DNA of 64,000 nt from an uncultured Gammaproteobacteria bacterium (GTDB lineage Bacteria; Patescibacteriota; Patescibacteriia; Magasanikbacterales; UBA922). This document shows positions 394 to 63,464 of the stretch, one piece after another. The translations under genes were made by a program, and so were the position numbers. Each line of letters opens with the position of its first letter. Within the stretch, counting starts at the first letter, position 1. The notes beneath the pieces are model-generated. The model had not been told where the DNA came from and searched no databases. It saw nothing but the letters and a program-made list of their open reading frames with translations. Location of the stretch: assembly GCA_965231005.1 (NCBI GenBank), contig OZ246405.1, forward strand, positions 949,657 to 1,013,656. Reading direction: 5' to 3'.

Positions 394-1182
394 TCACCAG
401 CTGGCTCGACGATGGCAGCCGATCTTCTGCAACTCTTCCTTGGTCAGACCATGCTTCGGCATTTTCGGCTTTCTGAGCAGCTTGCACAATCGATTCGATC
501 TGATGACTCTGCTTCCGCCGCCGGCCTTGAGCAAGTAGTCGTACTCAAACCTAATCCCCAGGTTGTATGCCTTTGCCAGGTCAGCAACCTTTGGACCTTC
601 AAAGTCCGCTGGCATCTTGTGCAGCTTCTGCGGCACGGCCTTCTTGAAGAAGTCCACGTAGTCTGCAAGCAGTTCGGCGTAGAAGTACCGTTTTCCTCGA
701 AGCATGAGATCTGTCTTCGTGTACTTGACCAGCTCTGCAATGGCTGCGCTGTAGATGATGATCATCTGCTTCCGACCCTTCTTGATCTCGGCAAGGGTGG
801 GTTGACCTCTGCGCGGGTATGTCCTTTTGAACCAGGACCGCAGGCCTGGATGATCACGCTTTCTCCACAAGGCCTTTTCCAGCCTCTCTACACAATGGAC
901 GAGGCGGTCTGGATTCATTTTCAGGAGACTGTCGAGCACATGCTCTTGCGGAGAAAACTGCTCGAACGTACCCCAAGTCTCACCTTTGCCAACGCGCGTG
1001 TAGGCAAAGCGCTCCTGAAAGCACATGGTCACATCTCTCATCTGGGTTGCGTAGTCAGCCTTGTCACGACTGGTCAGGTACTTTTCGTCATACGGGTCGT
1101 ATTTGACGGGCTTCTGAGGCTGAGACCCACCACACCCACACATGAGTGAGATGATGAGGCAGAGTGAAATTCGAAAGAGCAT
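394..1182 (-). CDS. lipoprotein of unknown function inside a GC-rich island
   Basis: ORF 394..1251 trimmed to M at 1182 (MLFRISLCLIISLMCGCGG: signal peptide + lipobox LMCGC); GGGGG SD 6 nt upstream; ~55% GC vs ~33% surroundings. Confidence 0.55.
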   Translation of the reverse strand: MLFRISLCLIISLMCGCGGSQPQKPVKYDPYDEKYLTSRDKADYATQMRDVTMCFQERFAYTRVGKGETWGTFEQFSPQEHVLDSLLKMNPDRLVHCVERLEKALWRKRDHPGLRSWFKRTYPRRGQPTLAEIKKGRKQMIIIYSAAIAELVKYTKTDLMLRGKRYFYAELLADYVDFFKKAVPQKLHKMPADFEGPKVADLAKAYNLGIRFEYDYLLKAGGGSRVIRSNRLCKLLRKPKMPKHGLTKEELQKIGCHRRASW

Positions 1183-1360
1183 GATGTCCCCCTTTTGCTG
1201 TTGTCGTTGGGCCCATTCACAGGTTGTGAAATGGATATCTAACACTATCATAGTAAAAAGACAATGTCAAGATGTGTATTGTTTTGGCAAAAATATAGGA
1301 TTTTTTTTTATATTTTGGTATAATGTATACATACTCATAGTCCCCTATGAACATTTTTGT

Positions 1361-13067: not shown

Positions 13068-13170
13068 ACTTTTATTATTTCAATACAAACTTTGTTGAGG
13101 TAATAAAAGTGTAGACTTTCCTTTGAGAGTAAACACAACCTGGCAAACACCCGACATGTCGGAGGACATC

Positions 13171-13464
13171 ATGCAACAGCCGCACACTGACGCTTCTACC
13201 GAGACGACAACTCACCCTGATGAGGCAGCTTCCCTGACCTTCGCAGACCTGGACGACGGCGAGCACTTCCTGGTCATCAACGATCTCATGGAAGTCATGG
13301 ACACCCCAGACGATGCGATCACGATTTGGCGCAAGCTCGGCCACAACGGCAGGATGTGCCACAAGGCCAATGCTGCTGGCAACTGCGGCGAAGAAGGCCT
13401 GAAGAGCGGCAAGTGCACGTTCCAGACGTTCGACGACAACACTCCGGTGATTCGCACCAGATAG
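13171..13464 (+). CDS. hypothetical small acidic protein (GC-rich island)
   Basis: GGAGG SD 5 nt before ATG 13171; ~60% GC; ORF-track N-terminus trimmed. Confidence 0.35.
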   Translation: MQQPHTDASTETTTHPDEAASLTFADLDDGEHFLVINDLMEVMDTPDDAITIWRKLGHNGRMCHKANAAGNCGEEGLKSGKCTFQTFDDNTPVIRTR

Positions 13465-13480
13465 CCAAGTGGAGGTCGCG

Positions 13481-13714
13481 ATGAGTAGTCCGCTATCTTG
13501 CAGCTGTCTGTGCCATCAAGGTGGCGCCTGTGGCCTTGTCCCCTGTTGTGACCATGCTGGTTTGCGACCTGAACAGATTCGAACTCCTGCTGAGCAAGCG
13601 TTTCTTGCACATGCATTCGAAGTACTTGAGAACCTTCCTGCATCTCGCGAACTTGAGAAACAGGAAGCTGCTGACACAACACACGAGCTTCCTGATGACA
13701 TCATGGTGAACTAG
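13481..13714 (+). CDS. hypothetical small Cys-rich acidic protein (C-x-C-x-C...CC-x-H cluster)
   Basis: GGAGG SD 5 nt before ATG 13481; 'SCSCLCHQGGACGLVPCCDH'; 16 nt after upstream ORF. Confidence 0.35.
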   Translation: MSSPLSCSCLCHQGGACGLVPCCDHAGLRPEQIRTPAEQAFLAHAFEVLENLPASRELEKQEAADTTHELPDDIMVN

Positions 13715-13730
13715 AACAAAGGAGACATTC

Positions 13731-13763
13731 CCGACGACGGCCCTGCACGTACATCGTCGGGGC
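13731..13763. other. GC hairpin CCCGACGA/TCGTCGGG closing the island
   Basis: 8-bp perfect stem, 17-nt loop, no clear T-run. Confidence 0.35.
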
Positions 13764-13797
13764 CAAACAAAAGACACCAATTACTTGGTTTCATCAT

Positions 13798-14775
13798 TTA
13801 GCTGCTCATATGATCCAAAAATTCTTTTAGAAGAGATTCTAGCTCTTCTAGACTCGTCACTCTCACAAGCTTTCCTCGAAACTCTTTAATTCCAGGAATC
13901 TCCTGTCCAATTTTATTTGTTTTAAAATACCATGACAAATGTTTTCGAAACGTGACAATTCCCCGTTCCCCATACTGCTGTGTATGTAATCTTGCATGAC
14001 GCATGACAACATCAACACGCTCTTGCACTGAAACAATATATTCTGGTTCAAGGACTTGCTTAAAAAACCAAGGATTTCCAAGCGCACCACGTGCAATAAG
14101 CACTCCATCACACCCTGTCTGCTCTAATGCTTCTTCTACTTGATGTGGTTGATGAATATCACCATTTGCAATAAACGGAACTGTAGCTATTTCTTTTGCT
14201 TGTCTGATTCGTTCCCAATCACTAACACCACTATATCCCTGTTTTCTTGTTCTCCCATGCATTGTTATTAAATCTGCACCAGCTTCTTCTATAACAGGAA
14301 TAAATGTTTTAAAAGTATCAGGATTATCCCAGCCTAGACGAATCTTTACTGAGAGTGGCGTATCTCCTATTTCCTTTTTCATTGATCTAACAATTGCAGC
14401 TGCACGTTCTGGCTCTTTCATAAGCGCTGCACCATTAAAATTGCTTGTGATTTTATACACAGGGCAACCCATGTTTATATCAATTCCTTCTGGATTTGCA
14501 TGCTCCATGACAATTGCTGCAGCCTTTCCCATTGTTTCTGGATCAGCTCCAAAAATTTGTTGTACAATTGGACGTTCTGACTCAACAAAATCTGTCATGC
14601 CAATTGTCTTTTGATTTTCTCGAATAATAGCTTCTGAACTTACCATTTCACGAAATACAATATCAGCACCACCAATTTGGCGCACAATTTGACAAAATGA
14701 AGAATCTGTCATATCTGCCATTGGTGACAGTGCAAGCATCTTCTTATTTTTAGATAATATGTCGTTGATCCACAT
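13798..14775 (-). CDS. tRNA-dihydrouridine synthase
   Basis: 'LALSPMADMTDSSF', 'MGCP', 'GAALMKEPE', 'NGDI' Dus family blocks; start among M21/M33 of ORF. Confidence 0.7.
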   Translation of the reverse strand: MWINDILSKNKKMLALSPMADMTDSSFCQIVRQIGGADIVFREMVSSEAIIRENQKTIGMTDFVESERPIVQQIFGADPETMGKAAAIVMEHANPEGIDINMGCPVYKITSNFNGAALMKEPERAAAIVRSMKKEIGDTPLSVKIRLGWDNPDTFKTFIPVIEEAGADLITMHGRTRKQGYSGVSDWERIRQAKEIATVPFIANGDIHQPHQVEEALEQTGCDGVLIARGALGNPWFFKQVLEPEYIVSVQERVDVVMRHARLHTQQYGERGIVTFRKHLSWYFKTNKIGQEIPGIKEFRGKLVRVTSLEELESLLKEFLDHMSS

Positions 14776-22665: not shown

Positions 22666-23145
22666 ATGTCCAAGACCATCCGAATTGCGATCGCATCTGA
22701 CCACGCTGGCGTGGGAGAGAAAGCTGCTGTGATCCGTGCCCTTGGAATCACTCCAAAAACCATCACGCGAGGACCTGACTACGATGTCAAAGACTTTGGT
22801 CCATCAGAACAAGAGGGGCGCGTAGACTACCCGGCATTCGCAGCCAAGGTCGCAAGAGCAGTTGCGGACGGCACGGTTGACCTGGGCATCCTGATCTGCG
22901 GCACTGGCATTGGCATGTCTATCGCAGCCAACAAGTTTCCTGGCATTCGGGCAGCATTGGCTCACAACGCTACGACTGCCAGACTGGCCCGTGAGCACAA
23001 CAACGCCAACGTACTGTGTCTCGGAGCACGCATGCTCGGCAGGGACCTCATCATCGAGTGCGTCCGTGCTTGGCTCGAGGCCGAGTTTGAGGAACGGCAC
23101 CAACACCGGCTGGACATCATCGCTTCGATCGAGGCTGAAATGTAG
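22666..23145 (+). CDS. rpiB: ribose-5-phosphate isomerase B (RpiB/LacAB family), GC-rich actinobacterial-like
   Basis: 'IAIASDHAG', 'GILICGTGIGMSIAANK', 'ALAREHNNANVLCLG', 'RHQHRLDI'; AAAGGAG SD; ~60% GC. Confidence 0.8.
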   Translation: MSKTIRIAIASDHAGVGEKAAVIRALGITPKTITRGPDYDVKDFGPSEQEGRVDYPAFAAKVARAVADGTVDLGILICGTGIGMSIAANKFPGIRAALAHNATTARLAREHNNANVLCLGARMLGRDLIIECVRAWLEAEFEERHQHRLDIIASIEAEM

Positions 23146-27229: not shown

Positions 27230-27408
27230 TTTTCCACACAAATTCTTGCGAATATAATACTATTGCTGTACAGTACTTATTGTATGAATCACATTGTACG
27301 CACAACAACTACAACTACAAAGACTTTCCAACCGGAGAGGTAGTTGTGTTGTAACAAACAATCAATCAACCACCTCTGCCGAGGTGGTTTTGCATTTGGG
27401 GGGACATA

Positions 27409-27606
27409 ATGGTATATCCGGGTACAGACATCAAAATCCAAAAGGGAGATGCAGTCCATCTCGAGGGTGTCGGAGAAGGGACGATTACCTACGTTGCAAG
27501 ACCAACAGACCACATCCTGGTCACAGTCGAGGTGGGAAGCTACCACAACCTCGATGAGGGGCGGATGAGTGGACTCCGGTTCGTGCGTCGCGGAGCCGCT
27601 GCATAG
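27409..27606 (+). CDS. hypothetical 65-aa protein in GC-rich cassette
   Basis: GGGGGG SD 5 nt before ATG; two leader hairpins upstream (27316-27365, 27371-27392); own terminator downstream. Confidence 0.35.
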   Translation: MVYPGTDIKIQKGDAVHLEGVGEGTITYVARPTDHILVTVEVGSYHNLDEGRMSGLRFVRRGAAA

Positions 27607-27637
27607 CACAAGTGAGGGAGAGAACAACAAGGGGGAA

Positions 27638-27679
27638 AGGGATCGAGCTTCTGGCTGGTCCCTCTTCTTTTTTATTTTA
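27638..27679 (+). terminator. intrinsic terminator of the 27.4-kb cassette (GGGATCG...TGGTCCC + TCTTCTTTTTTATTTT)
   Basis: GC stem with long T-run on plus strand. Confidence 0.5.
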
Positions 27680-30245
27680 AATATTTTTTCAAGTAATTTC
27701 CTGTATGACTATATCCTTTCAGGGCAACTTGCTCTGGTGTTCCAGCAACAAGGACTTCCCCACCTTTGTCACCACCTTCTGGACCAAGATCAATAATCCA
27801 GTCAGCACATTTAATCAAATCAAGATTGTGTTCAATAACAAGTACTGTATTTCCCTGTGACACAAGTTTTTGTAGAACCTCAACAAGTTTTCGTACATCA
27901 TCATAATGCAATCCTGTTGTGGGCTCATCAAGAAGATATAATGTTTTTGTTGTATTTCTTTTTGCAAGTTCACGACTAAGTTTAATACGTTGTGCCTCTC
28001 CACCAGAAAGTGTTGTTGCAGATTGACCAAGGGTTAAATAATCCAGTCCAACCTCATTTAACATTTTTAATTTATCATGAATCGCAGGAATATCTTTAAA
28101 AAATACTTCTGCTTCTTCTATAGTCATATCAAGCACGTCTGCAATTGATTTTCCATTGAAATGAACTTGCAAGGTTTCACGGTCAAAACGCTTTCCCTTA
28201 CAAACATCACAAAGAATTTCAACACTTGGCAAAAAGTGCATTTCAATTTGAAGATTTCCTCTTCCTTCACAATGTTCACACCTACCACCAGGTCGGTTAA
28301 AACTAAATCGTCCTTTTTTGTATCCACGAATACGTGCTTCTGGCGTTGACGCAAATAAATCTCGAATAACATCAAATGCTTTTGTATATGTTGCAGGATT
28401 ACTTCGTGGTGTGCGACCAATTGGTTTCTGATCAATACGAATGATTTTATCAATATATTCTGTCCCTAAAATCTCACGATGCTTACCAACAATTTTATCT
28501 GTACGATGCAATCTATTTGAAACAGTACGATACAAAATTTTATTCATGAGTGTTGATTTTCCAGATCCAGAAACACCTGTTAAACATACCAATCTTCTGA
28601 GTGGAATGTTCACATTAATTTTTTTCAAATTGTGCTGCTCAGCACCTTTTATTTTTATGAGTGGTGTTGTGCGATCAACTTTTCTTCTTTTTTCTGGAAG
28701 TGGAATTTTTGATTCATTACGAAGATATTTTCCTGTTAATGATTTTTTGGGATCACCATACTGTTTTGCTTTTGTTTTTTCTTTTGATAATGAAAGTAAT
28801 GTTGAACGAGGACCAGAAAAAACAATATCTCCCCCGTGCTTTCCTGCACGCGGTCCTAAGTCAACAACCCAATCACTCATAAGAATTGTTTCTTCATCAT
28901 GTTCTACAATAATGATGGTATTCCCAACATCACAAAGATTTCTTAGTGTTGAAACAAGTTGAGCATTGTCACGCTGGTGAAGTCCAATTGTTGGTTCATC
29001 TAACACATACAGTGCACCAACGAGTTTTGTCCCAACCTGTGATGCAAGACGAATGCGTTGTGCTTCTCCACCAGACAATGTTCCTGCCTTTCTATTGAGT
29101 GTTAAATAGTGCAATCCAACATCACTCATAAATTGCAATCTATTTTGCACTTCTTTTAACACTGTTCCTGCAATTTCTTTTTGTGAGGCATCAAGTGCAT
29201 CATCTATTTGCAAAAAGTAATCAATCGCATCATTGATTGTTAACGATGTAATTTCATAAATATTTTTGTCTCCAACCCTAACATGCAGTGCATCTTCATT
29301 TAATCGTTTTCCTTCACATTGACTACAAACTTCTTCACTAAATAATTCTTTTGTTCCCAAACCATAACAGTGTTGACACTGTCCATATGGGCTATTAAAA
29401 CTAAACAACCGCGGTTCAATTTCTGGAAAACTATATCCATCATTTGGACAAGAATATTCTGTGCTATATATTTGTTCTGTTTGATCTTGAAAATGAATAG
29501 CACATAATCCGTTTGATAATTCCACTGCAGATTCTACTGCTTCTGCAAGCCGACGTGTATCTTCACTTTTTTTTGTAAATGTTGCACCTGCAAGTGGAAT
29601 CCGATCAATAACAATTTCAATGGTGTGTTTTTTATGACGTGACAATTTCACTCGACTGCGTAGACTTTTTATTTTTCCATCAATCCGAACTTCTAAATAT
29701 CCTGCATTGTACATATCGTAGAGCATTTGATAATACTCCCCTTTTCTTCCACGAACAACTGGGGAAAAAATAATAAGTTCATTCTCTGCTTTTTTTGCAA
29801 CTGTTTTTTTCTTTGTTGAAGAAATAATTCGTGTTGTCATTTCTTCTACTGTCATCTTTCTAATTTCAACACCATCAATTGGACAATAGGGTTGTCCTAC
29901 ACGAGCAAATAACACACGCAAATAATCATAAATCTCTGTAATCGTTGCAACAGTCGAACGAGGGTTTGCACTGTGCGCTTTTTGATCAATAGAAATTGCA
30001 GGCGAAAGCCCTTCAATCTCATCAACATCTGGCTTTTGCATCCCACCTAAAAACTGTCGTGCATATGCAGAAAGACTTTCAACATATCGACGCTGTCCTT
30101 CGGCAAAAATTGTATCAAACGCAAGAGAGGACTTTCCTGATCCAGACAGTCCTGTAAATGTAATCATCTTGTTCCGAGGGAGTTCAAGATCAATATTTTT
30201 CAAATTGTGCTCTCGAGCACCTTTTATAATGATATTATCCTGCAT
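27672..30245 (-). CDS. uvrA: excinuclease ABC subunit A
   Basis: two ABC ATPase modules, Zn fingers 'CEHCEGRG', 'CQHCYGLG', 'LSGGEAQRI' x2. Confidence 0.9.
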   Translation of the reverse strand: MQDNIIIKGAREHNLKNIDLELPRNKMITFTGLSGSGKSSLAFDTIFAEGQRRYVESLSAYARQFLGGMQKPDVDEIEGLSPAISIDQKAHSANPRSTVATITEIYDYLRVLFARVGQPYCPIDGVEIRKMTVEEMTTRIISSTKKKTVAKKAENELIIFSPVVRGRKGEYYQMLYDMYNAGYLEVRIDGKIKSLRSRVKLSRHKKHTIEIVIDRIPLAGATFTKKSEDTRRLAEAVESAVELSNGLCAIHFQDQTEQIYSTEYSCPNDGYSFPEIEPRLFSFNSPYGQCQHCYGLGTKELFSEEVCSQCEGKRLNEDALHVRVGDKNIYEITSLTINDAIDYFLQIDDALDASQKEIAGTVLKEVQNRLQFMSDVGLHYLTLNRKAGTLSGGEAQRIRLASQVGTKLVGALYVLDEPTIGLHQRDNAQLVSTLRNLCDVGNTIIIVEHDEETILMSDWVVDLGPRAGKHGGDIVFSGPRSTLLSLSKEKTKAKQYGDPKKSLTGKYLRNESKIPLPEKRRKVDRTTPLIKIKGAEQHNLKKINVNIPLRRLVCLTGVSGSGKSTLMNKILYRTVSNRLHRTDKIVGKHREILGTEYIDKIIRIDQKPIGRTPRSNPATYTKAFDVIRDLFASTPEARIRGYKKGRFSFNRPGGRCEHCEGRGNLQIEMHFLPSVEILCDVCKGKRFDRETLQVHFNGKSIADVLDMTIEEAEVFFKDIPAIHDKLKMLNEVGLDYLTLGQSATTLSGGEAQRIKLSRELAKRNTTKTLYLLDEPTTGLHYDDVRKLVEVLQKLVSQGNTVLVIEHNLDLIKCADWIIDLGPEGGDKGGEVLVAGTPEQVALKGYSHTGNYLKKYLK

Positions 30246-35232: not shown

Positions 35233-35261
35233 TGACTTTCTTTAGATTTACTTGATATATT
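35233..35261 (+). promoter_or_regulatory. putative promoter TTGACT-17-ATATAT ahead of GC-rich non-coding region
   Basis: TTGACT 35233-35238, 17-nt spacer. Confidence 0.35.
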
Positions 35262-35267
35262 TTTTAT

Positions 35268-35892
35268 GTGGTGCTGTGTAACAAGCAGAACAATCACTGA
35301 TGTGAGCCCGGTGCTCTTCGGGGCCTGCACGCGCACGTTGGTGATGATGCTGTCGCTCTTTGGGTCTTCCAAGGTTGAAAACCCAGGAGGATTTCCAAGC
35401 AATTGGTCAAAAACCCTTAGCTCGACCCAGTCGAGAGAGCAGGCGGAGGGGCCCTGTAACTGCGCGAAAGTGTGGTTGTGATCAACAAAACATGGTTCTC
35501 CCATCATTACAATGTTTCCCTATTACGCACGAGGACACACACTTTCTAAGCCTCGCGGAACAGGAAACAACGTATAGGAGACGGTTAGACTGATTACCGG
35601 ACGGCTTGTCTGGACGGTTTTCTTGGTTAGTTTCAGCCATTGAGTTGTTGGTCGCCTAGGCAGGGTGAGTAAAGCTGCAGTCTTTGTGAGCCACGTCAAA
35701 GTTATCCTTGAACTCTTTTGCCGGCCCTAGGTTCAACCCAAGGAGCTGAGCAATCTGATCGAGTTGCACACATAGGAAGCTCAGACACGCTCTAGGGGGA
35801 TTGTTGCACAGCACCCCCTTTTCTCTCTCCAAAAGCCCATTTTGGGTAGAGATAATAAAAAAAGCCTTATTACAGGGCTTTTTTTGTATTGA
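35268..35892 (+). ncRNA. unidentified GC-rich structured RNA transcription unit 1 (~620 nt)
   Basis: ~55-60% GC in a ~33% GC genome, no credible ORF, dense local complementarity, ends in AAGCC...GGCTT + T7 terminator 35865-35892. Confidence 0.35.
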
Positions 35893-35908
35893 AGATATTA
35901 TAAAAAAC

Positions 35909-35937
35909 TTGACAAATTTACCCTCTTTCTGTATAAT
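35909..35937 (+). promoter_or_regulatory. perfect consensus promoter TTGACA-17-TATAAT
   Basis: TTGACA 35909-35914, TATAAT 35932-35937; typical of stable-RNA promoters. Confidence 0.6.
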
Positions 35938-35942
35938 ACGTC

Positions 35943-36508
35943 GTTGTTCCTACCAGAGCAAGTAGCTAGTGATAGCACCAGCTGTTATCTCAGCGACAAG
36001 TTTTTTTGCGTTGCGGGGTCGTGATGATCGACCTTAGACTCTCGGCTTGAGATGCAAAGACCTGGGGGTAGAAAACTAAGAGATTTTTGTGCAACACTCT
36101 TAGAAGAGACTACCACATCGCCCCTGGCGAGTAACTCTTTCTGACCGTCTGATGTTGGTCCTAGCAAAACTCTGTGGCGGAGCGACCTCTGTGCCGATGT
36201 GACTCGTGGTGCGGTTGAACAATCCGTCTTGTCTTCTTAAATGTTGTGGTCCTGTTGAAATCAGGTAATCCGAAAGGATGGGGGCGGCCTAGGCTGTCTG
36301 ATTGCACGACATAAGACCGGGCGAGGAATTCTTCCTTGCTGCCATGATGAGCATTGCTGCGCGGAGAGCCGCGGGCGAGCGTGCGTTTCATTTTTTCCAC
36401 CCCTTGGAGATGGAGCGTGCCTCGCCTGCGGCCTTGATTTTTTTCTTTATCTAAAAAGGTAGAGAGAAAAAAGTAAAACATCCTGATGTGCTCAGGATGT
36501 TTTGTTTT
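35943..36508 (+). ncRNA. unidentified GC-rich structured RNA transcription unit 2 (~570 nt); RNase P-like sequence fragments but not confirmable
   Basis: consensus promoter upstream, terminator 36477-36508 downstream, no ORF; 'AUCAGGUAAUCCGAAAGGAUGGGGGCGG' and 'CACGACAUAAGACCGGGC' resemble RNase P P10-P12/P4 strings but spacing is wrong. Confidence 0.35.
36477..36508. terminator. bidirectional intrinsic terminator (AACATCCTGA-tgtgc-TCAGGATGTT + TTTGTTTT)
   Basis: 10-bp stem; serves RNA unit 2 (+) and the MBL gene (-). Confidence 0.65.
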
Positions 36509-37859
36509 AGACTTCAATGGTTTCTCCAAGTTCGGGAACAAACGCATCAATTCCTAAATCATCTTTTATCCGATGTGCAAGTTCTGTTGCTGCATGTGCT
36601 TCCCCATGAACACAATAGACTTTTGCTGGTTTCTTTTCTGCGTTCGCAATCCAATCAACAAGTTTGTTTTGATCACCGTGAGCAGAGAGCGCACCAATGG
36701 CTTGTATTTTACATTTGACCTGCACATCTTGCCCAAAAATTTTTACTTTTTCAGCACCTTCATACAATCGCCTTCCCAATGTTCCTCTTGCCTGATATCC
36801 AACAATAATGAGTGTTGATTTTGGATCTGAAAGATAGCGAAACAAATGATGCACAATACGTCCCCCATTCATCATACCAGCACCGGCTATTACAATTTTT
36901 GGACCTTTTCTGTGATTAATTTCTTTTGATTCTTGTTTTGATCTTGTAATAATAAGTTGTGGAAATTCAAAAAAGTCATTTCCCTTTGTATATTTTTTAC
37001 ATGCATGTTCATCATAGTATTCTGGATGCTTTTTATAGACTGGCAGAGCATCAATTGCCATGGGACTGTCAAGAAAAATAGGTGCGTCTGGAAGTGTGTT
37101 ATCTGTTTCACTCATTTCATCTAATTCATATAACAATTCTTGTGTGCGTTCAAGTGAAAATGCAGGAATCATAACTGTTCCTCCGCGTTTTACTCCTTCA
37201 GTAATTAAATCAAGAATAATCTGTTTTCTCTCGGTTGTTGTTTCATGAATTCTGTCTCCGTATGTTGATTCACATAATAATACATCTACAGACCCAAGCT
37301 GTTCTGTTTCTTTTAAAATTGGGACATTTGCATTGCCAATATCTCCAGAAAACGCTATTACTTTTCCGCCAATGTGGATTTCAATAAATGATGCACCAAG
37401 AATATGACCTGCATCTTTGAATATTGCATAATCACCATCGCCAAGATCTACCTTTTGGTGGTAGTCAACACCACTGCATTGTGAGACTGCTCTATCAATC
37501 TCTTCCAAGGTAAATAAAATCGGAGACTGGAATTTTTTGTTATTATATGTCATTATCTTGTAGGCGTCTTGCCAAATAAGTTTGGCAAGCCCAGCAGTCC
37601 CCTTTGTCATATATATAGAACCTGTATAGCCATCTCGGATAAGCTTAGGAATCCTTCCACTATGATCATTATGTGCATGACTGACAAGTACTGCATTGAT
37701 TGATGCAGGATCAAAAGGAAAATCATCTGCGTTTCTTCCTTCATTAAAATCACCGCCCTGAAACATACCGCAGTCAAGAAGAATTTTTTTCTTTCCTGTG
37801 TCAATAAGGTGACAAGATCCTGTTACTTCGTGTGCTGCTCCGTGGAACGTTATATTCAT
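36507..37859 (-). CDS. beta-CASP/MBL-fold RNA-metabolising hydrolase (RNase J/CPSF-like)
   Basis: 'HAHNDHSG' motif II, 'MNITFHGAAHEVTGSCHL', beta-CASP insertion, C-terminal His motif. Confidence 0.75.
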   Translation of the reverse strand: MNITFHGAAHEVTGSCHLIDTGKKKILLDCGMFQGGDFNEGRNADDFPFDPASINAVLVSHAHNDHSGRIPKLIRDGYTGSIYMTKGTAGLAKLIWQDAYKIMTYNNKKFQSPILFTLEEIDRAVSQCSGVDYHQKVDLGDGDYAIFKDAGHILGASFIEIHIGGKVIAFSGDIGNANVPILKETEQLGSVDVLLCESTYGDRIHETTTERKQIILDLITEGVKRGGTVMIPAFSLERTQELLYELDEMSETDNTLPDAPIFLDSPMAIDALPVYKKHPEYYDEHACKKYTKGNDFFEFPQLIITRSKQESKEINHRKGPKIVIAGAGMMNGGRIVHHLFRYLSDPKSTLIIVGYQARGTLGRRLYEGAEKVKIFGQDVQVKCKIQAIGALSAHGDQNKLVDWIANAEKKPAKVYCVHGEAHAATELAHRIKDDLGIDAFVPELGETIEV

Positions 37860-41502: not shown

Positions 41503-41550
41503 TAAAAGGCCTTAAAGGCTTTAAAAGCCATAAATGCCGTAAAGGCTAAA
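41501..41550 (+). repeat. short imperfect tandem repeat (~5 x 9-mer TTAAAGGCT) overlapping the murJ stop
   Basis: taaaaggcc ttaaaggct ttaaaagcc ataaatgcc gtaaaggct. Confidence 0.4.
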
Positions 41551-41551
41551 C

Positions 41552-41580
41552 AAAAAAAACACCTTTTTAGGTGTTCTTTT
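41552..41580. terminator. bidirectional intrinsic terminator (AACACCT-tttt-AGGTGTT with A8/T-run flanks)
   Basis: caaaaaaaacacctttttaggtgttctttt. Confidence 0.65.
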
Positions 41581-41686
41581 TGATATCCCCGAACCTTGCA
41601 GTGCGTATTCGTGCGAATACCAACCTTGCTTGGATTCGGGGTGTGGTCCCCTTGTTGAATGTGAATCCCAGGATCGAACCTTTTGA

Positions 41687-42268
41687 TCAGTCTGCGACCA
41701 CGGCCCAGGTGTTCCAGTACTCGAGCGTCTCCTTCGCGTTGGTGCGCACGTCGAACATGTCCCAGTCGTTCACCTCGTTGTTGCCACCGGCGAGGTTGTA
41801 GACCAGTCGGTACGGCGTCAACGCAGCCTTGGGACCGGCGAATGCGAGGACTGCGACGATGACGTGGGTGCAGTCGCTCGCCTTGATCCGCGCTTCTTCC
41901 TCGGGCTCGTCAGCGATGTCCGGATCGTTCAGGTACGCATCACGCGTGTACACCACGCAAGCCAGACCTTCGACTTCGGCAGCCTTGTCTCGACGCAGGA
42001 ACATGCCGGGCTGGCCCCGGTGCGTACGAACCACGTAGTCGTCCGGATCCTTGGACTTATGACCCACACCGGCCGACACCGACGACCACGCAGACTCGGG
42101 CAGATGCACGAAGTGCTGACCTTCTGCACGGTCACCCGACGAGTCATGGGAATCGACCGCGCTGGTCAGTGCAGCCATGAACGAATCGGTGTCGATGACC
42201 TTGGAACCGATCACACCAGTGCTCTTGAAGGCGGTCAGGTCGCCGTAGATCTCAAACTTGATGCTCAT
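41687..42268 (-). CDS. hypothetical protein (GC-rich island, gene 2 of 2)
   Basis: GGGAGG SD, start at second ATG (6-nt spacing); ~60% GC; no recognisable motif. Confidence 0.45.
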   Translation of the reverse strand: MSIKFEIYGDLTAFKSTGVIGSKVIDTDSFMAALTSAVDSHDSSGDRAEGQHFVHLPESAWSSVSAGVGHKSKDPDDYVVRTHRGQPGMFLRRDKAAEVEGLACVVYTRDAYLNDPDIADEPEEEARIKASDCTHVIVAVLAFAGPKAALTPYRLVYNLAGGNNEVNDWDMFDVRTNAKETLEYWNTWAVVAD

Positions 42269-42329
42269 CATGTGCCTCCCGGCGTTGTAATCCAATCGAC
42301 CAGCAAGGTCGAAGGATGTAGAAAATGTG

Positions 42330-42363
42330 GAGAAGAGAAATATTAATCTCTCTTCTCCACACC
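42330..42363. terminator. perfect 12-bp palindrome GTGGAGAAGAGA-n9-TCTCTTCTCCAC between the two island genes
   Basis: probable terminator/operator; short T-run (ATTTTCT) on minus strand. Confidence 0.45.
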
Positions 42364-42594
42364 TTCAAAGTGGGGTCACTTTAAAGAGCGATTGCTTTTC
42401 GTCCTTGTCATATTCTGTTTGGACTTCAGCCATAGGCTGAACAGTTTCCACTGTCATCAGTACTGAATTCATCAGTAGAAGCGATGCGGAATAGATAGCA
42501 TATTCCGCACCCTCCCTTGTTGAATTGTTGTTGTCGTTCTACCCAGTCATGGCTATCATCTGTTGCCAGATCATGACTGTTTGATGAACGATTA

Positions 42595-43317
42595 CTAGCG
42601 CCGTGCGCGGCGATCAGCCCGGTCGAACCGCATCTCGATGGCCTCAGCCTCGATCTCAGCCTGCTGCTGTCTCACTTCCCCGGTCAGATCCCCGTGCGTA
42701 GCGATGTGCAGAGCGAGCATCTGCTCGAGCAGATCGATTTCCTGCTGCGCGCGACTCCACTGGCTCTCTTCCGGAAAGTCATACAGATCCGTGGTCTTGC
42801 ACCTGATCTCGTCGAGAAGCGTCACCTGAAAGGTCCACGGATCGCAGAGCTCGGGGAACTTGCGCGTGTGGCAGACCTTTCGGATGAAATGCCAGATGTG
42901 ATTCAGACGCGAGGGCTTTTCCTCGACGAACGAACCCGCACCCTCGACCACCGAGCACTGCTTGACTTCACCGTCTGCGACCTCGAGGACGAAGTAGGGC
43001 TCACGAGCCTTGCGCCAGCCCGGGCTGTACAGGCCGATGGTCAGCGTGGTGTCAGTTGCACGAACCTGCATGCGACCGCTGGAAGTGGTGTAGCAGAGTG
43101 CGCCTTCACCATCGAGCGTCCACGTTGCCTTGGTCCAGCCGAACTCGCCTTGCGGGGGCTTCTTGTCCTTGCGGGTCTCGACCAGCTTGTGCAGCTCTCC
43201 GATGTTGATGTCCGCAGGACTAACCCCGGGGGGATGACAGGTGTGACGCAGCATCCGCATGATGTACATCACGAGAGCAACGATGTTTTCAAACCGATTC
43301 TTCTTGACATTGGCCAT
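42595..43317 (-). CDS. hypothetical protein (GC-rich island, gene 1 of 2)
   Basis: AAGGAGGT SD 5 nt upstream of ATG 43317 (ORF 42595..43476 trimmed); C-terminal Arg/Glu/Gln-rich helix. Confidence 0.45.
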   Translation of the reverse strand: MANVKKNRFENIVALVMYIMRMLRHTCHPPGVSPADINIGELHKLVETRKDKKPPQGEFGWTKATWTLDGEGALCYTTSSGRMQVRATDTTLTIGLYSPGWRKAREPYFVLEVADGEVKQCSVVEGAGSFVEEKPSRLNHIWHFIRKVCHTRKFPELCDPWTFQVTLLDEIRCKTTDLYDFPEESQWSRAQQEIDLLEQMLALHIATHGDLTGEVRQQQAEIEAEAIEMRFDRADRRARR

Positions 43318-43634
43318 TGTGCACCTCCTTGGTTGTGCGAATGAGCGGCCAAACTCATGCGCTAGTGCGACCATGTTCATTATTGTTAATGGAAATGGTT
43401 GCACTACCAAGGTGGTATAAAAAGAACGGCCTTTGTGTAGAATTTTTTGCCTACACAAGACAACGTAGTCTAGCACAAAAAAAGGCTTTTGTCAAGGGGT
43501 TTTTGGCCTTTTTGGGCTAAAATAAAGGAAAAAAACAATAATTTTAGAACTTTTATGTTTTCTTGATAATAGATTTATTAATATTATTCCTGTACGGTTG
43601 ATATATAGATCCAAAATGTGTTTAATTATATACA

Positions 43635-44216
43635 GTGCTTAACGCTAACTCTATGACAGATACCGAACATAATAAATCAGACATATTAATAGTTCTTGAT
43701 GTTGATGAAACACTAATTCATGCAACAGACGAAAAATTAAATCAGAAAGAAGATTTCAAGGTCTTTGATTATTTTGTATATAAAAGACCACATTTACAAT
43801 CCTTCTTAGAAGAACTATATAAACACTTTAGGCTTGGTATTTGGTCATCTGCGAGTGATGATTTTGTAGAAGAAGTTATCAAAGTCATTGCACCAGAACA
43901 TATAGACTTTGAAATGATATGGGGCAGAAGTCGTTGTTCATTTAGAAGGGATATTGAAATTGATAGGTACTATTATGAAAAAAGGTTAAAAAAATTAAAA
44001 AGAAAGGGACATGATTTAGATAAAATTCTTTTAATTGATGATACACCAGAAAAGGCAAGAAGAAATTATGGGAATGCTATTTATATTCAAGAATTTACAG
44101 GAGATAAAGAAGATAATGAATTGCAAATATTATTAAAGTATTTGATTTCTTTGAAAGATGTTGAGAATGTTAGAGCGATAGAAAAGAGGGGGTGGAAGAA
44201 TTCGATTGAGAAATAG
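43635..44216 (+). CDS. NIF/FCP1-like HAD-family protein phosphatase (CTD-phosphatase-like)
   Basis: 'ILIVLDVDETLIHA' DxDxT motif, 'VYKRPHLQSFLEELYKHFRLGIWSSAS', 'LLIDDTPEK'. Confidence 0.65.
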   Translation: MLNANSMTDTEHNKSDILIVLDVDETLIHATDEKLNQKEDFKVFDYFVYKRPHLQSFLEELYKHFRLGIWSSASDDFVEEVIKVIAPEHIDFEMIWGRSRCSFRRDIEIDRYYYEKRLKKLKRKGHDLDKILLIDDTPEKARRNYGNAIYIQEFTGDKEDNELQILLKYLISLKDVENVRAIEKRGWKNSIEK

Positions 44217-44399
44217 AGATTCGGATTCGTTTTTCCAAAGTTACATCCCATTTAAACAGGATTTATAAAGATCAGCGGCAGTATTTTTTCTTTAAGCAAG
44301 CAAAGAGCAGTGTAGTGCTCAAAAAAAATTTTAGATACTATATATTGTGGATAACTTTATCTCATGAATATGTTATAATTTATATATAAAAATTTAATG

Positions 44400-44960
44400 T
44401 CTTTGCGGGACTCAAAGACAATGGCCGAGGAAACCCAAACCACCATTCAGGCGGGAACTTCGTAGGCAATGTCTAGAAATAGATTGCGCCCTACGCAAAG
44501 TCCCAACTAGCTTAGGGCAATGTTGCAAAACAAAGTCCTATGAAGTCTCGGCCTGGCTGGTGGTGTTTTTGTAAAAGGAATCTCTGAGTGAGTCATAATA
44601 GCCTCGTAACCACTTGCGGGGCAATATGGTTCACTTTTAAGAGCCAGGAAAATACCTTTGCTTATGCCTTGCAAAAGAAATAGCAAATGTAAAACTTCCT
44701 CTAAGCGCAAGACTGTAAGAGTCGTTGCACATAAGCGCAGACCGCGTTGCTAATATGTGTAAACCACTTATTAGGCGTTTGCCAGAGGAATCCTATTTTC
44801 CATGTATCACAAAACCGCACAATTAAGTACGGCTTGTGAGACCACTGACTAGAGATCAGTGATGGAAAATATGTTGAAAACCGAGGGTGTTCACAGACGT
44901 GTGAGCATCCTGTGGTTTTTATTTTAGAACTTATAAAAAGTTCTATAGGGGCGCGAGATT
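44400..44960 (+). ncRNA. GC-rich non-coding region, probably one or two structured RNAs (candidate tmRNA body or other stable RNA); identity unresolved
   Basis: ~50% GC, no ORF, internal T-run terminator-like sites at ~44573 and ~44927. Confidence 0.3.
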
Positions 44961-44962
44961 AG

Positions 44963-45047
44963 GGGGGAGATGTGACAGGTGTCACGGACAGGATTTATAC
45001 CCTGTTTGCTTCGTCGGCGTGGGGTTCAATACCCCTCTCCTCCACCA
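44963..45047 (+). ncRNA. 85-nt tRNA-like element with G3:U70 acceptor pair, T-arm GGGGTTCAATACCCC and 3' CCACCA (tmRNA tRNA-like domain or atypical type-II tRNA)
   Basis: acceptor GGGGGAG/CTCCTCC (7 bp incl. G.U at position 3), D-arm GTGAC-agg-TGTCAC, second hairpin ACAGG-8nt-CCTGT, encoded ACCA end; followed by GGACTTTTTTT. Confidence 0.45.
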
Positions 45048-45454
45048 AATCTTTCTCGCGTCTCTATAGGACTTTTTTTATTTTTGACGACAAAAAAATG
45101 TACCAAAGTTATCCACATTTGTCAAGTTTGTAAATGCAAAAATTGTCTTTGAACATTTTTTCCTCACAGACTTGCTTTAAAAAAAACGCTAATTTAAGCA
45201 ATTATTTTAAGAAGGCTAACGATACATTTATTATATAGTATTTTTTTTAAACACACAACACGGGTGCAATCTTTGTAAAATTTTGTAGAATTATTTTAGA
45301 GAAAAATTTCTTGCATTTTCTGCATGATTTTATTTTTTCTTCATATTGATTTTACTAGTATTACCTATAAGAAAGTAGACCGACTCATTCAGACAATTTG
45401 ATTTTCTAAATACATTAATATAATTCCCAAAAATCTCTCAAACTTATAAATACT

Positions 45455-46144
45455 ATGACCAATCTAGAAAAACAAGTCAGCGACATAACTATAGGCATTA
45501 GATTTCAGAGATCCTTCAAGATTCAGGACATACTAGGCACAATAACTGATAAACTCCTTCATGATGAAAACTCACCGCTGAGTGTAGACTACTTCCCTAG
45601 GAGAGATCAGAACTTATCCGAAATGATTCTAACAAACGACAAAGAATCTTACTTGAAGGTTAATACGGATGATATTATTTTTAGGCATTCAATTGAAAAA
45701 GACCTACACAATGACATAGAGTTTATGAAAGAATACTTAAAATATATCAGGAAATTGCTTAGAAAATATAATATTCAAAATATTACAAGAATCGGGATTA
45801 TCTACAACCATAAATTTAAGGGAGACCAATCAAAATTTGATGATGCAATAAAATCAATAACAAACAACACCCTAGTTGAAACTGATAATTTTTCATTTTC
45901 GTTCTCAAAAAAAATTCCAGATCCCACTGCCTTGTATGATACGGACGTTGATGATTATCGAAATGTTATTTATATATTTAAAAAGATTTCAGACAAAATA
46001 TTTTCTGCGAGTGTAGATTATCAAAAATATTTTAAACCACCCCTTGAGTATATCGAAGATGAACTTTACGAGAATCTATTGAATGATAGTAGACATTTTT
46101 TAGAAAAAAAGTTTTATAATATTTTTTTAGACATAGATGAGTAA
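45455..46144 (+). CDS. hypothetical protein
   Basis: 229-aa AT-rich ORF downstream of the tRNA-like element. Confidence 0.4.
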   Translation: MTNLEKQVSDITIGIRFQRSFKIQDILGTITDKLLHDENSPLSVDYFPRRDQNLSEMILTNDKESYLKVNTDDIIFRHSIEKDLHNDIEFMKEYLKYIRKLLRKYNIQNITRIGIIYNHKFKGDQSKFDDAIKSITNNTLVETDNFSFSFSKKIPDPTALYDTDVDDYRNVIYIFKKISDKIFSASVDYQKYFKPPLEYIEDELYENLLNDSRHFLEKKFYNIFLDIDE

Positions 46145-46670
46145 AAAAAATAATCCAAGAAAAAGAACTCGACAAAAAGATAGAATTGATAGAAAAAACT
46201 ATGCAGGTTCCTTGGGATTGCATCCAGTAGATGGAACTGAGAAAGAAGCATCTACTTTATCTTCAGACTCATCAACATTCAAACAAAGGGAAAGACCTAA
46301 AAAAACCAAAAAAAGACCTAAAAAGAGAAAGTCAGCAAGTAAAAAGACCTCTGATCACATAAAGAAAAATTGGGTTAACTATTTGATATCTGGTTTGTGG
46401 GTGATTGCATGCTTCTTATTTTTAAATGACTACAATTTTAATGCAGATTTAAAAGTAGCTGAGAATAAAATACTAAACATAGAAAAACGCATTACTGAAT
46501 ACAAGGAGAGCGGGATAATCTCCAAAGAGGAGTACCAAAATTTTGAAAATGAAATTGAAAAAATAAAGAATACATATTCAAAACTAGACAAAGTCAACAA
46601 ATTAGAAAAAGACCTTGAGATACTTAAAATATCTACAGAAAAAGACCTAGAAAATCTAAAGAATAGCTGA
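46137..46670 (+). CDS. hypothetical Lys-rich membrane/coiled-coil protein
   Basis: start overlaps previous stop (ATGAGTAA); one TM (WVNYLISGLWVIACFLFL) then coiled-coil. Confidence 0.4.
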   Translation: MSKKNNPRKRTRQKDRIDRKNYAGSLGLHPVDGTEKEASTLSSDSSTFKQRERPKKTKKRPKKRKSASKKTSDHIKKNWVNYLISGLWVIACFLFLNDYNFNADLKVAENKILNIEKRITEYKESGIISKEEYQNFENEIEKIKNTYSKLDKVNKLEKDLEILKISTEKDLENLKNS

Positions 46671-46756
46671 CTTGCCCCACCCCTCATTTTAAGGTAAAAT
46701 ATAAGCAAAAGAATAGAGGCCTTTTTGGCCTATTTTTGTGAATCTCTCCCTTATTT

Positions 46757-62471: not shown

Positions 62472-63335
62472 TTGTTTAATAATTGGGTCATTATGCTATT
62501 AGGAGAGAACAATAACCTTGAAAATCATGTTATTCATATATTGGCACACTCAGGAAAAGCAAAAGTTGAAGATGTATTAGATGCATTTGGGCGTGATGAA
62601 AAAGGGGCCACAGTTCAAGGTGTTTACCGCGTACTCAGAAAACTACAAAAAGAAGGAGTCATTTCAAAGGAAAGGAGTTCTTATAGTTTGCGCATTCCAT
62701 GGCTACTTGAATTAGCAAGTTTAGTAGACACCATGGAGGACACGTATCTCAACAAAGAATATTTAAAACAATTACTTCCAGCACCTGGCGCTGCAAAAAA
62801 AGTTTGGACGTTTAGTAATTTACTAAAAATGAATGATGTGCGAATGCACATCTTGCTTGCTCTTACACGACACATTAAAAAAGGAATTGCTCTTCAGTAT
62901 GCACCTCATGATTGGTTTACTATTTTGAACATGAGACAAGCTGCCCAATTTAAAAAATCTTTTTTAGAACATATCAATAAAAGCTACGTCATTATTGGTG
63001 GCCAAAGTTATGTTGATAAATATATTAGAGCACTTTCAAAAACAGAAAAAGAAGAAACATATCTTGCACCAGAAGAAGATTGTGTTGAGCAAGAACGAAA
63101 TATGTATGTTGATGTTATTGATGATTATATTTTGACTATCAAATTAGACGATCACACAACAAAAAATATTGATACACTTTACAACAGCATAGCATCTGAA
63201 GATGATATGCATCTGCTCGATATTTTTGAAACATTCACTGGAAAAGTAAAAGTCAAAATGATTATAAAAGAAGACCCTCGGAAGGCCGGGGTCTATCGGA
63301 GAAAAGTTACAAATGCGTTTGGACCGTTACGATAA
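62472..63335 (+). CDS. hypothetical protein with winged-helix-like N-terminal segment
   Basis: 287-aa ORF; 'VQGVYRVLRKLQKEGVI'. Confidence 0.4.
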   Translation: MFNNWVIMLLGENNNLENHVIHILAHSGKAKVEDVLDAFGRDEKGATVQGVYRVLRKLQKEGVISKERSSYSLRIPWLLELASLVDTMEDTYLNKEYLKQLLPAPGAAKKVWTFSNLLKMNDVRMHILLALTRHIKKGIALQYAPHDWFTILNMRQAAQFKKSFLEHINKSYVIIGGQSYVDKYIRALSKTEKEETYLAPEEDCVEQERNMYVDVIDDYILTIKLDDHTTKNIDTLYNSIASEDDMHLLDIFETFTGKVKVKMIIKEDPRKAGVYRRKVTNAFGPLR

Positions 63336-63464
63336 TAGTTATTAGATATTAGTTAATAGCTACTAGATGATAAAGTGTTAGACTCTAGATACTAAAACAA
63401 GATTGGCAAGCCAATCTTGTTTTCTAATAACTATTAACTAATAGCTAGTAACCAGTAATTATTC
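63334..63464. repeat. stop-codon-rich palindromic element enclosing a perfect bidirectional terminator (63394-63423)
   Basis: outer arms taatagttattagatattagttaatagctactag / tctaataactattaactaatagctagtaaccag; inner AAAACAAGATTGG-caag-CCAATCTTGTTTT. Confidence 0.55.

Follow-up and report, generated by a model that had tools for sequence, protein, structure and literature searches.

A small GC-rich patch, probably imported, at the murJ–lepA junction of a Patescibacteria-type genome

How did a short GC-rich segment with two unannotated genes come to lie between murJ and lepA in an otherwise AT-rich bacterial genome, and do its two genes belong together? The segment is part of a 64,000-nucleotide (nt) stretch of DNA (hereafter the window) from an uncultured bacterium placed among the Patescibacteria (assembly GCA_965231005.1, contig OZ246405.1, positions 949,657 to 1,013,656 of the forward strand). 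Horizontal gene transfer and genomic islands are common in Patescibacteria, reaching up to 13% of genome length (PMC12455944). A preliminary description of the window, made from the letters of the sequence, considered the segment to be foreign DNA with two genes that resist assignment, and proposed that the pair forms a mobile cassette of the defence or toxin–immunity style. Here we report an analysis of the composition, genomic context, protein families and RNA structures of this locus. The segment is probably a small, recently imported patch at an insertion hot spot, carrying two intact genes (hereafter referred to as A and B) that appear to be unrelated and do not form a conserved pair. The first part of the earlier interpretation, foreign DNA with unassignable genes, thus stands, whereas the cassette does not. 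We further describe the family of gene B, which recurs as GC-rich islets in AT-rich genomes and resides in large phages.

A GC-rich patch in an AT-rich genome

A 200-base pair (bp) sliding profile revealed that positions 41533 to 43425 form the largest GC-rich patch of the window, with 55.4% GC against a window mean of 37.2%. Genes A and B have GC contents of 59.9% and 61.0%, respectively, compared with 30–36% for the neighbouring genes, and deviate by +5.6 and +5.8 standard deviations from the 600-bp windows elsewhere (mean 0.367, standard deviation 0.042). The excess resides mainly at third codon positions, where the GC content (GC3) is 0.76 in A and 0.78 in B, but 0.22–0.24 in murJ, lepA, secA and the gene for an NIF-type phosphatase. 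The tetranucleotide correlation of the segment with the rest of the window is 0.51, as compared with 0.725 ± 0.088 for windows of the same size. By GC deviation, GC3 and tetranucleotide usage alike, the segment therefore has the atypical composition of a genomic island or islet. The module of about 1.9 kilobases (kb) initially noticed is thus real, and its composition did not become uniform on recalculation; the background of about 33% GC assumed for it was slightly low. Both open reading frames (ORFs) are present on the minus strand as first listed, and the near-consensus Shine–Dalgarno sequences noted for them were found in front of each:

42595–43317, minus strand: gene A, 240 amino acids (ORF list)
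43323–43330, minus strand: Shine–Dalgarno sequence AAGGAGGT, 5 nt before the ATG of A (read from the sequence)
41687–42268, minus strand: gene B, 193 amino acids (ORF list)
42275–42280, minus strand: Shine–Dalgarno sequence GGGAGG, 6 nt before the ATG of B (read from the sequence)
41503–46756, no strand: accessory interval between murJ (end 41502) and lepA (start 46757), defined by synteny with relatives

Insertions recur at the murJ–lepA junction

A scan with the MurJ protein of the window retrieved 80 metagenomic loci, and about 20 of these, with MurJ 55–68% identical, were compared for synteny. The gene order in these relatives is an RNaseJ-like gene, g38043, corA (in some cases), murJ and lepA. 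The gap between murJ and lepA spans 5.25 kb in the window, whereas it measures 0–230 bp in most of the relatives, in which murJ is directly followed by lepA. A and B are absent from this site in the approximately 20 relatives, and hence are not ordinary core genes of the lineage at this locus, the outcome that would have spoken against a foreign module. Other relatives carry unrelated inserts of 0.65–3.2 kb at the same junction, including a methyltransferase gene (loci L041 and L047), a gene for a sigma-54-type activator (L064) and 1.2–3.2 kb of other genes (L046, L048, L059 and L062). The junction is a hot spot for the insertion of accessory genes, because the window and these relatives carry differing inserts there, and it could be used as a marker locus for accessory-gene turnover in the lineage. 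The timing of the gain is coarse, since the nearest relative shares just 68% MurJ identity.

In the window, the accessory interval comprises, in order, B, A, the NIF-type phosphatase gene, a stretch that lacks ORFs but carries a tRNA-like element, and a pair of hypothetical genes that are AT-rich. The phosphatase gene next to A is AT-rich and matches its Pfam family with an E value of 1e-36. The segment lacks the mobility signatures of an island. No direct or inverted repeats flank it, no integrase or transposase was found among the ORFs of the window, no tyrosine recombinase ORF occurs between 39 and 47 kb, and ARAGORN and Rfam detected no tRNA at the segment edges. A self-mobile element is not supported, because there is no recombinase ORF, edge repeat or edge tRNA, and an insertion-sequence reading was rejected in the same way, as no repeats bracket the segment. 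A T-arm-like string, GGATCGAACC, had been pointed out at the left boundary; it lies outside any tRNA-like fold, with ARAGORN and Rfam negative there, and the idea of a tRNA or attachment site was discarded, since the island edges hold nothing of the kind. Nor does the segment resemble a prophage: PHROGs yielded no significant match for A or B, and their neighbours are murJ, the NIF-type phosphatase gene, hypothetical genes and lepA.

The sole tRNA-like element of the interval (44963–45047) lies 1.6 kb from the segment and is oriented away from it. This 85-nt element, on the plus strand, combines an acceptor stem of 8 bp and an anticodon loop of 8 nt (ATTTATAC) with a long variable arm, a T arm (GGGGTTCAATACCCC) and an encoded CCA. 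ARAGORN called it, at relaxed settings only, as 'tRNA-?(Stop|Ile)(ttat)', and the Rfam transfer-messenger RNA (tmRNA) model fits just the two tRNA-like ends, with 24.5 bits, below its gathering score of 47. An ORF-less stretch of 43–48% GC (44400–44950) precedes the element. A perfect 13-nt inverted repeat, TGTGGATAACTTT and AAAGTTATCCACA (44346–44358 and 45105–45117), encloses this ORF-less region together with the tRNA-like element, and each arm holds a consensus DnaA box (TTATCCACA).

The B family recurs in AT-rich bacteria and in large phages

In a collection of 5.8 billion proteins, the family comprises at least 86 clusters at 90% identity, all of about 190 residues and all without Pfam domains. 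Among species-representative genomes, B occurs at 16 loci, in Patescibacteria/Parcubacteria/Uhrbacteria, Bdellovibrionota, 'Gammaproteobacteria', Acidimicrobiaceae and Methylococcus metagenome-assembled genomes (MAGs). Another 22 loci come from IMG/VR, on viral contigs of 52–407 kb, except two shorter ones (6.6 and 34 kb), and two further contigs, of 433 kb and 200 kb, carry B among the dense, small, unannotated and co-directional genes typical of huge phages. Most carriers are Patescibacteria, Bdellovibrionota, 'Gammaproteobacteria' MAGs and large uncultivated phages. The link to Actinobacteria that had been suggested was not seen, with one Acidimicrobiaceae MAG carrying B. Searches of GenBank phage records and PLSDB plasmids with tblastn gave no match for A or B.

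The composition of the B gene differs between these settings. In viral contigs, its GC content tracks that of the flanks (0.44–0.75 versus 0.41–0.68). In AT-rich cellular contigs, by contrast, the GC3 of B is 0.71–0.98 versus 0.35–0.45 in the far flanks, and the gene stands alone or beside GC-rich unannotated genes. Low-GC copies exist in two MAGs (L010 and L015) and in four low-GC phages (L117, L119, L122 and L127); therefore, high GC is not intrinsic to the family and marks recent import. The pattern is repeatable, with B GC-rich in small AT-rich genomes and compositionally at home in phages. In a rough neighbour-joining tree, viral and cellular copies interleave, and the window B groups with five other GC-rich islet copies that are 62–69% identical. 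Such divergence, combined with GC3 values that have not ameliorated, argues for independent imports from related GC-rich donors rather than vertical descent within AT-rich genomes.

These features liken the B homologs to the accessory ('moron'-type or auxiliary) genes of large and huge phages: they reside among small, mostly unannotated, variable genes on contigs of 52–433 kb, and match the phage in composition. PHROGs annotation of the genes beside the phage copies returned only ParB-like, peptidase and nucleotidyltransferase matches. The window locus differs from such settings in that it is no prophage, has no hallmark genes nearby and is flanked by core bacterial genes. On the 200-kb phage-like contig with a B homolog (L110), positions 1–1941 encode a ClpX-type AAA protein interrupted by an intein with Hint and LAGLIDADG homing-endonuclease domains.

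A and B do not form a conserved pair

The proposal that A and B are a functional two-gene cassette (toxin–immunity, toxin–antitoxin (TA) or small anti-phage defence) that moved as a unit draws on their adjacency, shared orientation, matching GC and GC3 and strong Shine–Dalgarno sequences, together with the conflict-system families found near some B homologs. The co-occurrence that it predicts, and that the preliminary description recommended looking for, was not observed. No A-family ORF was present among all ORFs of 47 B loci, as judged by BLAST, phmmer and a hidden Markov model (HMM) of A2, and no B-family gene lies beside the A relatives in L023, L026 and L137. At the four A-family loci seen (these three and the window), the neighbours are unrelated, and those of the three relatives resemble neither each other nor B. 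Clustering of the ORFs within about 3.5–6 kb of B, at 19 and then 47 loci, likewise gave no conserved partner of B, the clusters being mostly shadow ORFs; B is usually alone or with differing GC-rich neighbours. A few families were loosely linked to B, with an ApaH/lambda-type phosphatase at 6 phage loci and cREC_REC at 4–5 loci.

Defence annotation was also negative. PADLOC (PADLOC-DB v2) returned no match at E ≤ 1 for A or B, none for the NIF-type phosphatase or g45455, none for the neighbours of the B homologs in L003, L134 and L108, and a marginal CorA-like match (E = 0.007) for g46137. Neither PADLOC nor Pfam detected a toxin or antitoxin domain in A or B. Type II TA and polymorphic toxin–immunity pairs such as RelE/ParE and CdiA-CT/CdiI have partner families that are adjacent in many unrelated genomes and are tightly spaced or overlapping, whereas A and B show no conserved pairing, are separated by a 326-nt gap that holds a perfect 13-bp hairpin followed by TTTTCT, reminiscent of a terminator, and are both larger than typical TA components. 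On the basis of the lack of co-occurrence, the absence of PADLOC matches and the 326-nt gap, a mobile defence or toxin–immunity cassette is unsupported, and we regard it as unlikely. A and B appear unrelated to each other and do not behave as a conserved pair. Their equal GC and GC3 and common orientation are compatible with arrival on one donor fragment, which concerns history and not function.

Genes that share an orientation and a foreign composition, and that each precede an imperfect palindrome, also call to mind integron cassettes and clusters of attC sites lacking integrases (CALIN arrays). Unlike these, the hairpins of the segment lack the attC R''/R' core (RYYYAAC...GTTRRRY), each gene has its own strong Shine–Dalgarno sequence and A has a promoter-like site. 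The integron reading was rejected: no attC core was evident on inspection of the hairpins, for which no dedicated attC model was used, and no integron integrase is encoded in the window region.

Several features were observed beside B homologs elsewhere. Conflict-system Pfam families lie 0.1–4 kb from B, namely cREC_REC at L006:2002-2313, L022:8383-8685, L108:5631-6410 and L127:8467-8853, and GT4-conflict at L136:896-2044, although this linkage is loose. GC-rich genes without a Pfam domain stand beside the two closest B homologs (L003:597-1700, 367 amino acids; L134:1502-2596, 364 amino acids). The similarity between these two genes is confined to a domain at the C terminus, about 60 residues long (41% identity, E = 2e-11), and one lies upstream of B, the other downstream.

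A highly structured spacer separates the genes

The intergenic parts of the segment are rich in hairpins, listed here from left to right:

41551–41582, no strand: bidirectional intrinsic terminator of host type after murJ, AACACCT...AGGTGTT with A/T runs (terminator scan and fold)
41587–41641, minus strand: imperfect hairpin of 55 nt in the 3′ flank of B, CCCCGAA...TTCGGGG, enclosing a GTATTCG/CGAATAC stem (fold)
42269–42594, minus strand: A–B spacer, 326 nt, GC 0.44, with consecutive hairpins (fold compared with shuffles)
42326–42361, minus strand: perfect 13-bp palindrome TGTGGAGAAGAGA / TCTCTTCTCCACA with a 10-nt loop (stem scan and fold)

The hairpin-rich left boundary described initially was confirmed: the nested hairpin at 41587–41641 abuts the murJ terminator, and the minus strand of 41540–41690 (151 nt) folds with −48.9 kcal/mol (z = −4.5). 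The terminator marks the left edge of the imported DNA, and the nested hairpin belongs to the imported segment, because its GC content is about 0.49. The palindrome between the genes, previously reported as 12 bp at 42330–42363, is real, but its coordinates were slightly off. In the RNA fold it extends to 17 pairs and is followed by TTTTCT on the minus strand, 58 nt upstream of the B start. The 64-kb window contains 7 perfect stems of at least 11 bp, as compared with about 0.45 expected from shuffles. The palindrome looks like a terminator for A, judging by its stem and the tract that follows, and was not called by a consensus terminator scan.

The sense strand of the spacer has a minimum free energy of −126.6 kcal/mol, versus −78.5 ± 5.6 kcal/mol for shuffles (z = −8.5), and only one 300-nt window of the 64 kb is more structured than the spacer. 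These values raise the question of whether the spacer itself, as a structured non-coding RNA or a cis-regulatory leader for B, is the real point of the locus. The antisense (plus) strand folds less well (−110.1 kcal/mol, z = −5.4), as expected if G–U pairs matter, and strong hairpins occur upstream of several other B homologs. However, although hairpins are common at these places, their position is not conserved. The spacer has no Rfam match beyond noise and no similar sequence in any fetched locus, a pairwise comparison with the L003 spacer revealed no homology or shared structure, and a six-sequence RNAalifold run on the window and on the DNA preceding B in its five nearest homologs gave no alignable or covarying structure (0 predicted pairs). 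Its elements are simple perfect stems, as in terminators and palindromic intergenic repeats, without multi-helix junctions, and the structure rests on a single sequence. A functional spacer thus seems improbable to us, and we treat the spacer as donor-derived intergenic DNA with terminator and stabiliser hairpins.

Upstream of the B homologs in L003 and L007 (approximately L003:1725-1810 and L007:5795-5880), a common string, TTCGACATGGTT, is followed by a long hairpin, the arms of which differ in a compensatory way between the two loci (GGACGTGGGT.../...ACCCCACGTCC versus GGGACAGTGGGTTCA.../...TGAACCCAACGTCCC). In the window, the long hairpin found about as far from the B start codon is a different one. 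Among all 300-nt windows of the 64 kb, that at 63330–63460 is the most structured (z about −20); it lies between convergent genes, and there long AT-rich inverted repeats surround a perfect 13-bp terminator hairpin (AAAACAAGATTGG/CCAATCTTGTTTT).

The patch is neither an assembly artefact nor native

The abrupt composition step could in principle reflect an assembly chimera or a GC-rich contaminant fused to an AT-rich contig. Two separate assemblies speak to this point. Contig L001 (ENA, another assembly) reproduces window positions 53374 to 41736 with 99.98% identity and covers the side of A, the NIF-type phosphatase gene and lepA; contig L002 (Logan, a different run) reproduces positions 42394 to 40925 with 100% identity and covers the side of B and the 3′ end of murJ. 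L001 stops within B, at window position 41736, as a chimera might have it; nevertheless, the right junction is contained in L001 and the left one in L002, so that both GC-rich/AT-rich junctions were independently assembled. Moreover, the proteins encoded in the window were located on an NCBI contig of 1,232,850 bp, whose length and gene content are in keeping with a Patescibacteria-type genome, and AT-rich contigs with a GC-rich B were seen again in at least 10 unrelated assemblies. The GC-rich patch is not an assembly artefact, and a chimera is accordingly very improbable. Least credible of all is that A and B are native, long-resident genes with a functional reason for their high GC, as the Ala, Gly, Val, Pro, Arg and Asp content of B (which raises GC at the first and second codon positions) and the slightly higher GC of phage B copies relative to their own flanks might suggest: this is already contradicted by the absence of both genes from the syntenic site and by an excess that falls chiefly on third positions (0.76–0.78 versus 0.23), and low-GC members occur in both families (those of B given above, and the A relative of Dojkabacteria locus L023).

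B adopts a DUF3228-like fold

Neither protein was found to have a placeable motif in the preliminary description, and searches of Pfam, NCBIfam, PHROGs, PADLOC and PDB sequences agreed, being negative for both. Searches of the same resources with family profiles gave nothing usable beyond weak DUF3228 matches for B. In the alignment of the B family, motifs are strongly conserved and the C-terminal Asp is invariant. The window B contains VSAGVG, HRG, VVYTxxAYLxDPD, THVIVAVLAFAGPKA, NLAGGNNE and a C-terminal WxVVAD, and retains all 15 invariant family residues. Its structure model has a predicted local distance difference test (pLDDT) score of 96. Given the retained residues and this model, B is probably functional.

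The model adopts a DUF3228-like fold, the fold of the solved structure 2pd0, to which it aligns structurally at 11% sequence identity. We regard the B family as one of soluble alpha/beta proteins with a single domain. At the sequence level, the window B does not match the DUF3228 (PF11539) HMM at E ≤ 1, let alone at the gathering score, and the B-family profile does not retrieve 2pd0. Weak DUF3228 matches occur in 2 of 35 family members (best E = 0.0024) and agree with the structural match; the B family is therefore a remote, bacterial and phage-borne branch of the DUF3228 fold. The viral structure library BFVD contained no significant match (best E = 0.013, TM score 0.28).

The structure 2pd0 is that of Cryptosporidium parvum cgd2_2020, solved by structural genomics, whereas the B family as sampled is bacterial and phage-borne. 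Our literature search found no paper mentioning DUF3228 and one mentioning cgd2_2020. The sole functional hint is a pocket-similarity prediction for 2pd0 that points to a purine or nucleoside-type site (PMC3892921). B may act as an enzyme or a ligand-binding protein, as its conserved Arg, Asn, Asp, Tyr and Thr residues, the invariant C-terminal Asp and the 2pd0 pocket comparison suggest. The only structural relative of the B family is an equally uncharacterised one; a Pfam-type family could be built for B, and a single biochemical assignment would annotate both the B family and DUF3228.

A belongs to a rare family

Gene A encodes a protein in which an alpha/beta domain at the N terminus precedes three long helices at the C terminus, with the motifs RxLxHxCxP, TxSGRMxI, LYSPxW, PY and RLxH. 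A word-indexed protein search with A returned the gene itself only. An exhaustive phmmer search over 1.84 billion representatives identified 12 remote relatives (E = 1e-12 to 2e-4, 26–39% identity), which have RxLxHxCxP, TxSGRMxI, LYSPxW and RLxH in common. Judging by these searches, the family is unannotated, very rare (much more so than that of B) and present in some Patescibacteria. The relative in a Dojkabacteria genome (L023) is of native composition, with a gene GC of 0.38 in a locus of 0.35; another has a gene GC of 0.53 in a 47% GC contig, and the closest has 0.59 in a 49% GC contig. A trimmed-alignment scan for A relatives in viral contigs gave no confirmed match.

Upstream of A, the sequence contains one promoter candidate:

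43467–43495, minus strand: best sigma-70-like promoter match for A, TTGACA-17 nt-TG-TAGACT (10/12 consensus matches, AT-rich flank)

This putative promoter is known solely as a consensus match; transcripts starting there would carry a structured 5′ leader of about 150 nt (fold z = −5.1). The Rho-independent-like hairpin originally placed at about 43480–43520 overlaps the same site; it is a weak 8-bp A/T-rich stem with a 19-nt loop that the terminator scan did not call, and was not upheld as a terminator.

Discussion

Our analysis suggests that the AT-rich genome of about 1.2 megabases (Mb) received the segment as a small patch of foreign DNA, and that its lineage repeatedly takes up accessory genes at the murJ–lepA junction. 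The B family is regularly present in uncultivated phages of large or huge size, and recurs as a GC-rich islet of one or a few genes in AT-rich, small-genome bacteria. The donor pool is likely to be GC-rich, and may include GC-rich phages, GC-rich Patescibacteria or host bacteria. GC-rich Patescibacteria do exist (L059, within the MurJ set, has 66% GC), and most transfers into Patescibacteria come from other Patescibacteria (PMC12455944); thus, the donor could be a GC-rich bacterium of the candidate phyla radiation (CPR), a host bacterium or a phage. Entry would most simply have involved DNA uptake and then recombination, illegitimate or by short homology, into a permissive intergenic site, rather than a self-mobile element. 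Once inserted, A could be expressed from the promoter-like site and its strong Shine–Dalgarno sequence, with the hairpin downstream as a terminator, and B from its own strong Shine–Dalgarno sequence.

Several observations weigh against this account. The spacer is structured far above chance, which the import of two genes leaves unexplained, and a consensus scan of the minus strand found no promoter-like site for B. The near-identical GC and GC3, adjacency and common orientation of A and B fit a shared origin and would allow a functional link in some donor not yet sampled; with 13 representatives, the A family is too rare for its lack of co-occurrence with B to carry more than limited power. 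No donor sequence was found, the nearest B relatives, at 62–69% identity, being themselves islets in AT-rich genomes, and the direction and recency of transfer derive from composition alone. Furthermore, the classification of the IMG/VR contigs as viral is that of the collection itself, and few of the neighbouring genes there match PHROG families.

Like the published islands of Patescibacteria (PMC12455944), the segment is an accessory insert of atypical composition in a streamlined CPR genome and is absent from the syntenic site of relatives. It differs from them in being very small (1.9 kb, two genes) and without an integrase, tRNA edge or repeats, in its unusually strong GC contrast of +23 points, and in that one of its genes, B, comes from a family forming GC-rich islets in many unrelated AT-rich genomes. 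Islets gained by horizontal transfer are a known phenomenon in Patescibacteria genomes, of which this locus is one more instance, and the part worth further work is only the unannotated, fairly widespread B family.

More speculatively, and with little confidence, one may picture B as a protein, not described so far, that serves huge phages in an auxiliary role, has a DUF3228-type fold, possibly acts on a ligand of the nucleotide or nucleoside type, and is captured and kept repeatedly from a GC-rich pool by Patescibacteria, which are ultra-small episymbionts, and by predatory bacteria; or, alternatively, A, the 326-nt RNA and B as a new three-part conflict system. Were the huge-phage version true, GC-rich B islets would mark ongoing gene flow from bacterial partners or the phages of those partners. 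Whichever version holds, such islets might, should their donors be identified, help to connect uncultivated CPR bacteria with their hosts or with phage pools.

Other GC-rich patches in the window

Further GC-rich islets are present in the window. Positions 22666–23145 (plus strand; segment GC 0.53) hold a ribose-5-phosphate isomerase B gene (LacAB_rpiB, E = 1e-52), and 394–1251 (minus strand; GC 0.51) a 285-amino-acid lipoprotein-like ORF, whereas the small patches at 13071–13808 and 27321–27762 contain only short unannotated ORFs. Several imports from GC-richer sources into this genome thus seem to have occurred. A stretch of about 1.3 kb at 35243–36518, with 47.6% GC, no ORF above about 90 amino acids and no Rfam match at E ≤ 0.1, may be the remains of a gene or a structured RNA that lacks annotation.

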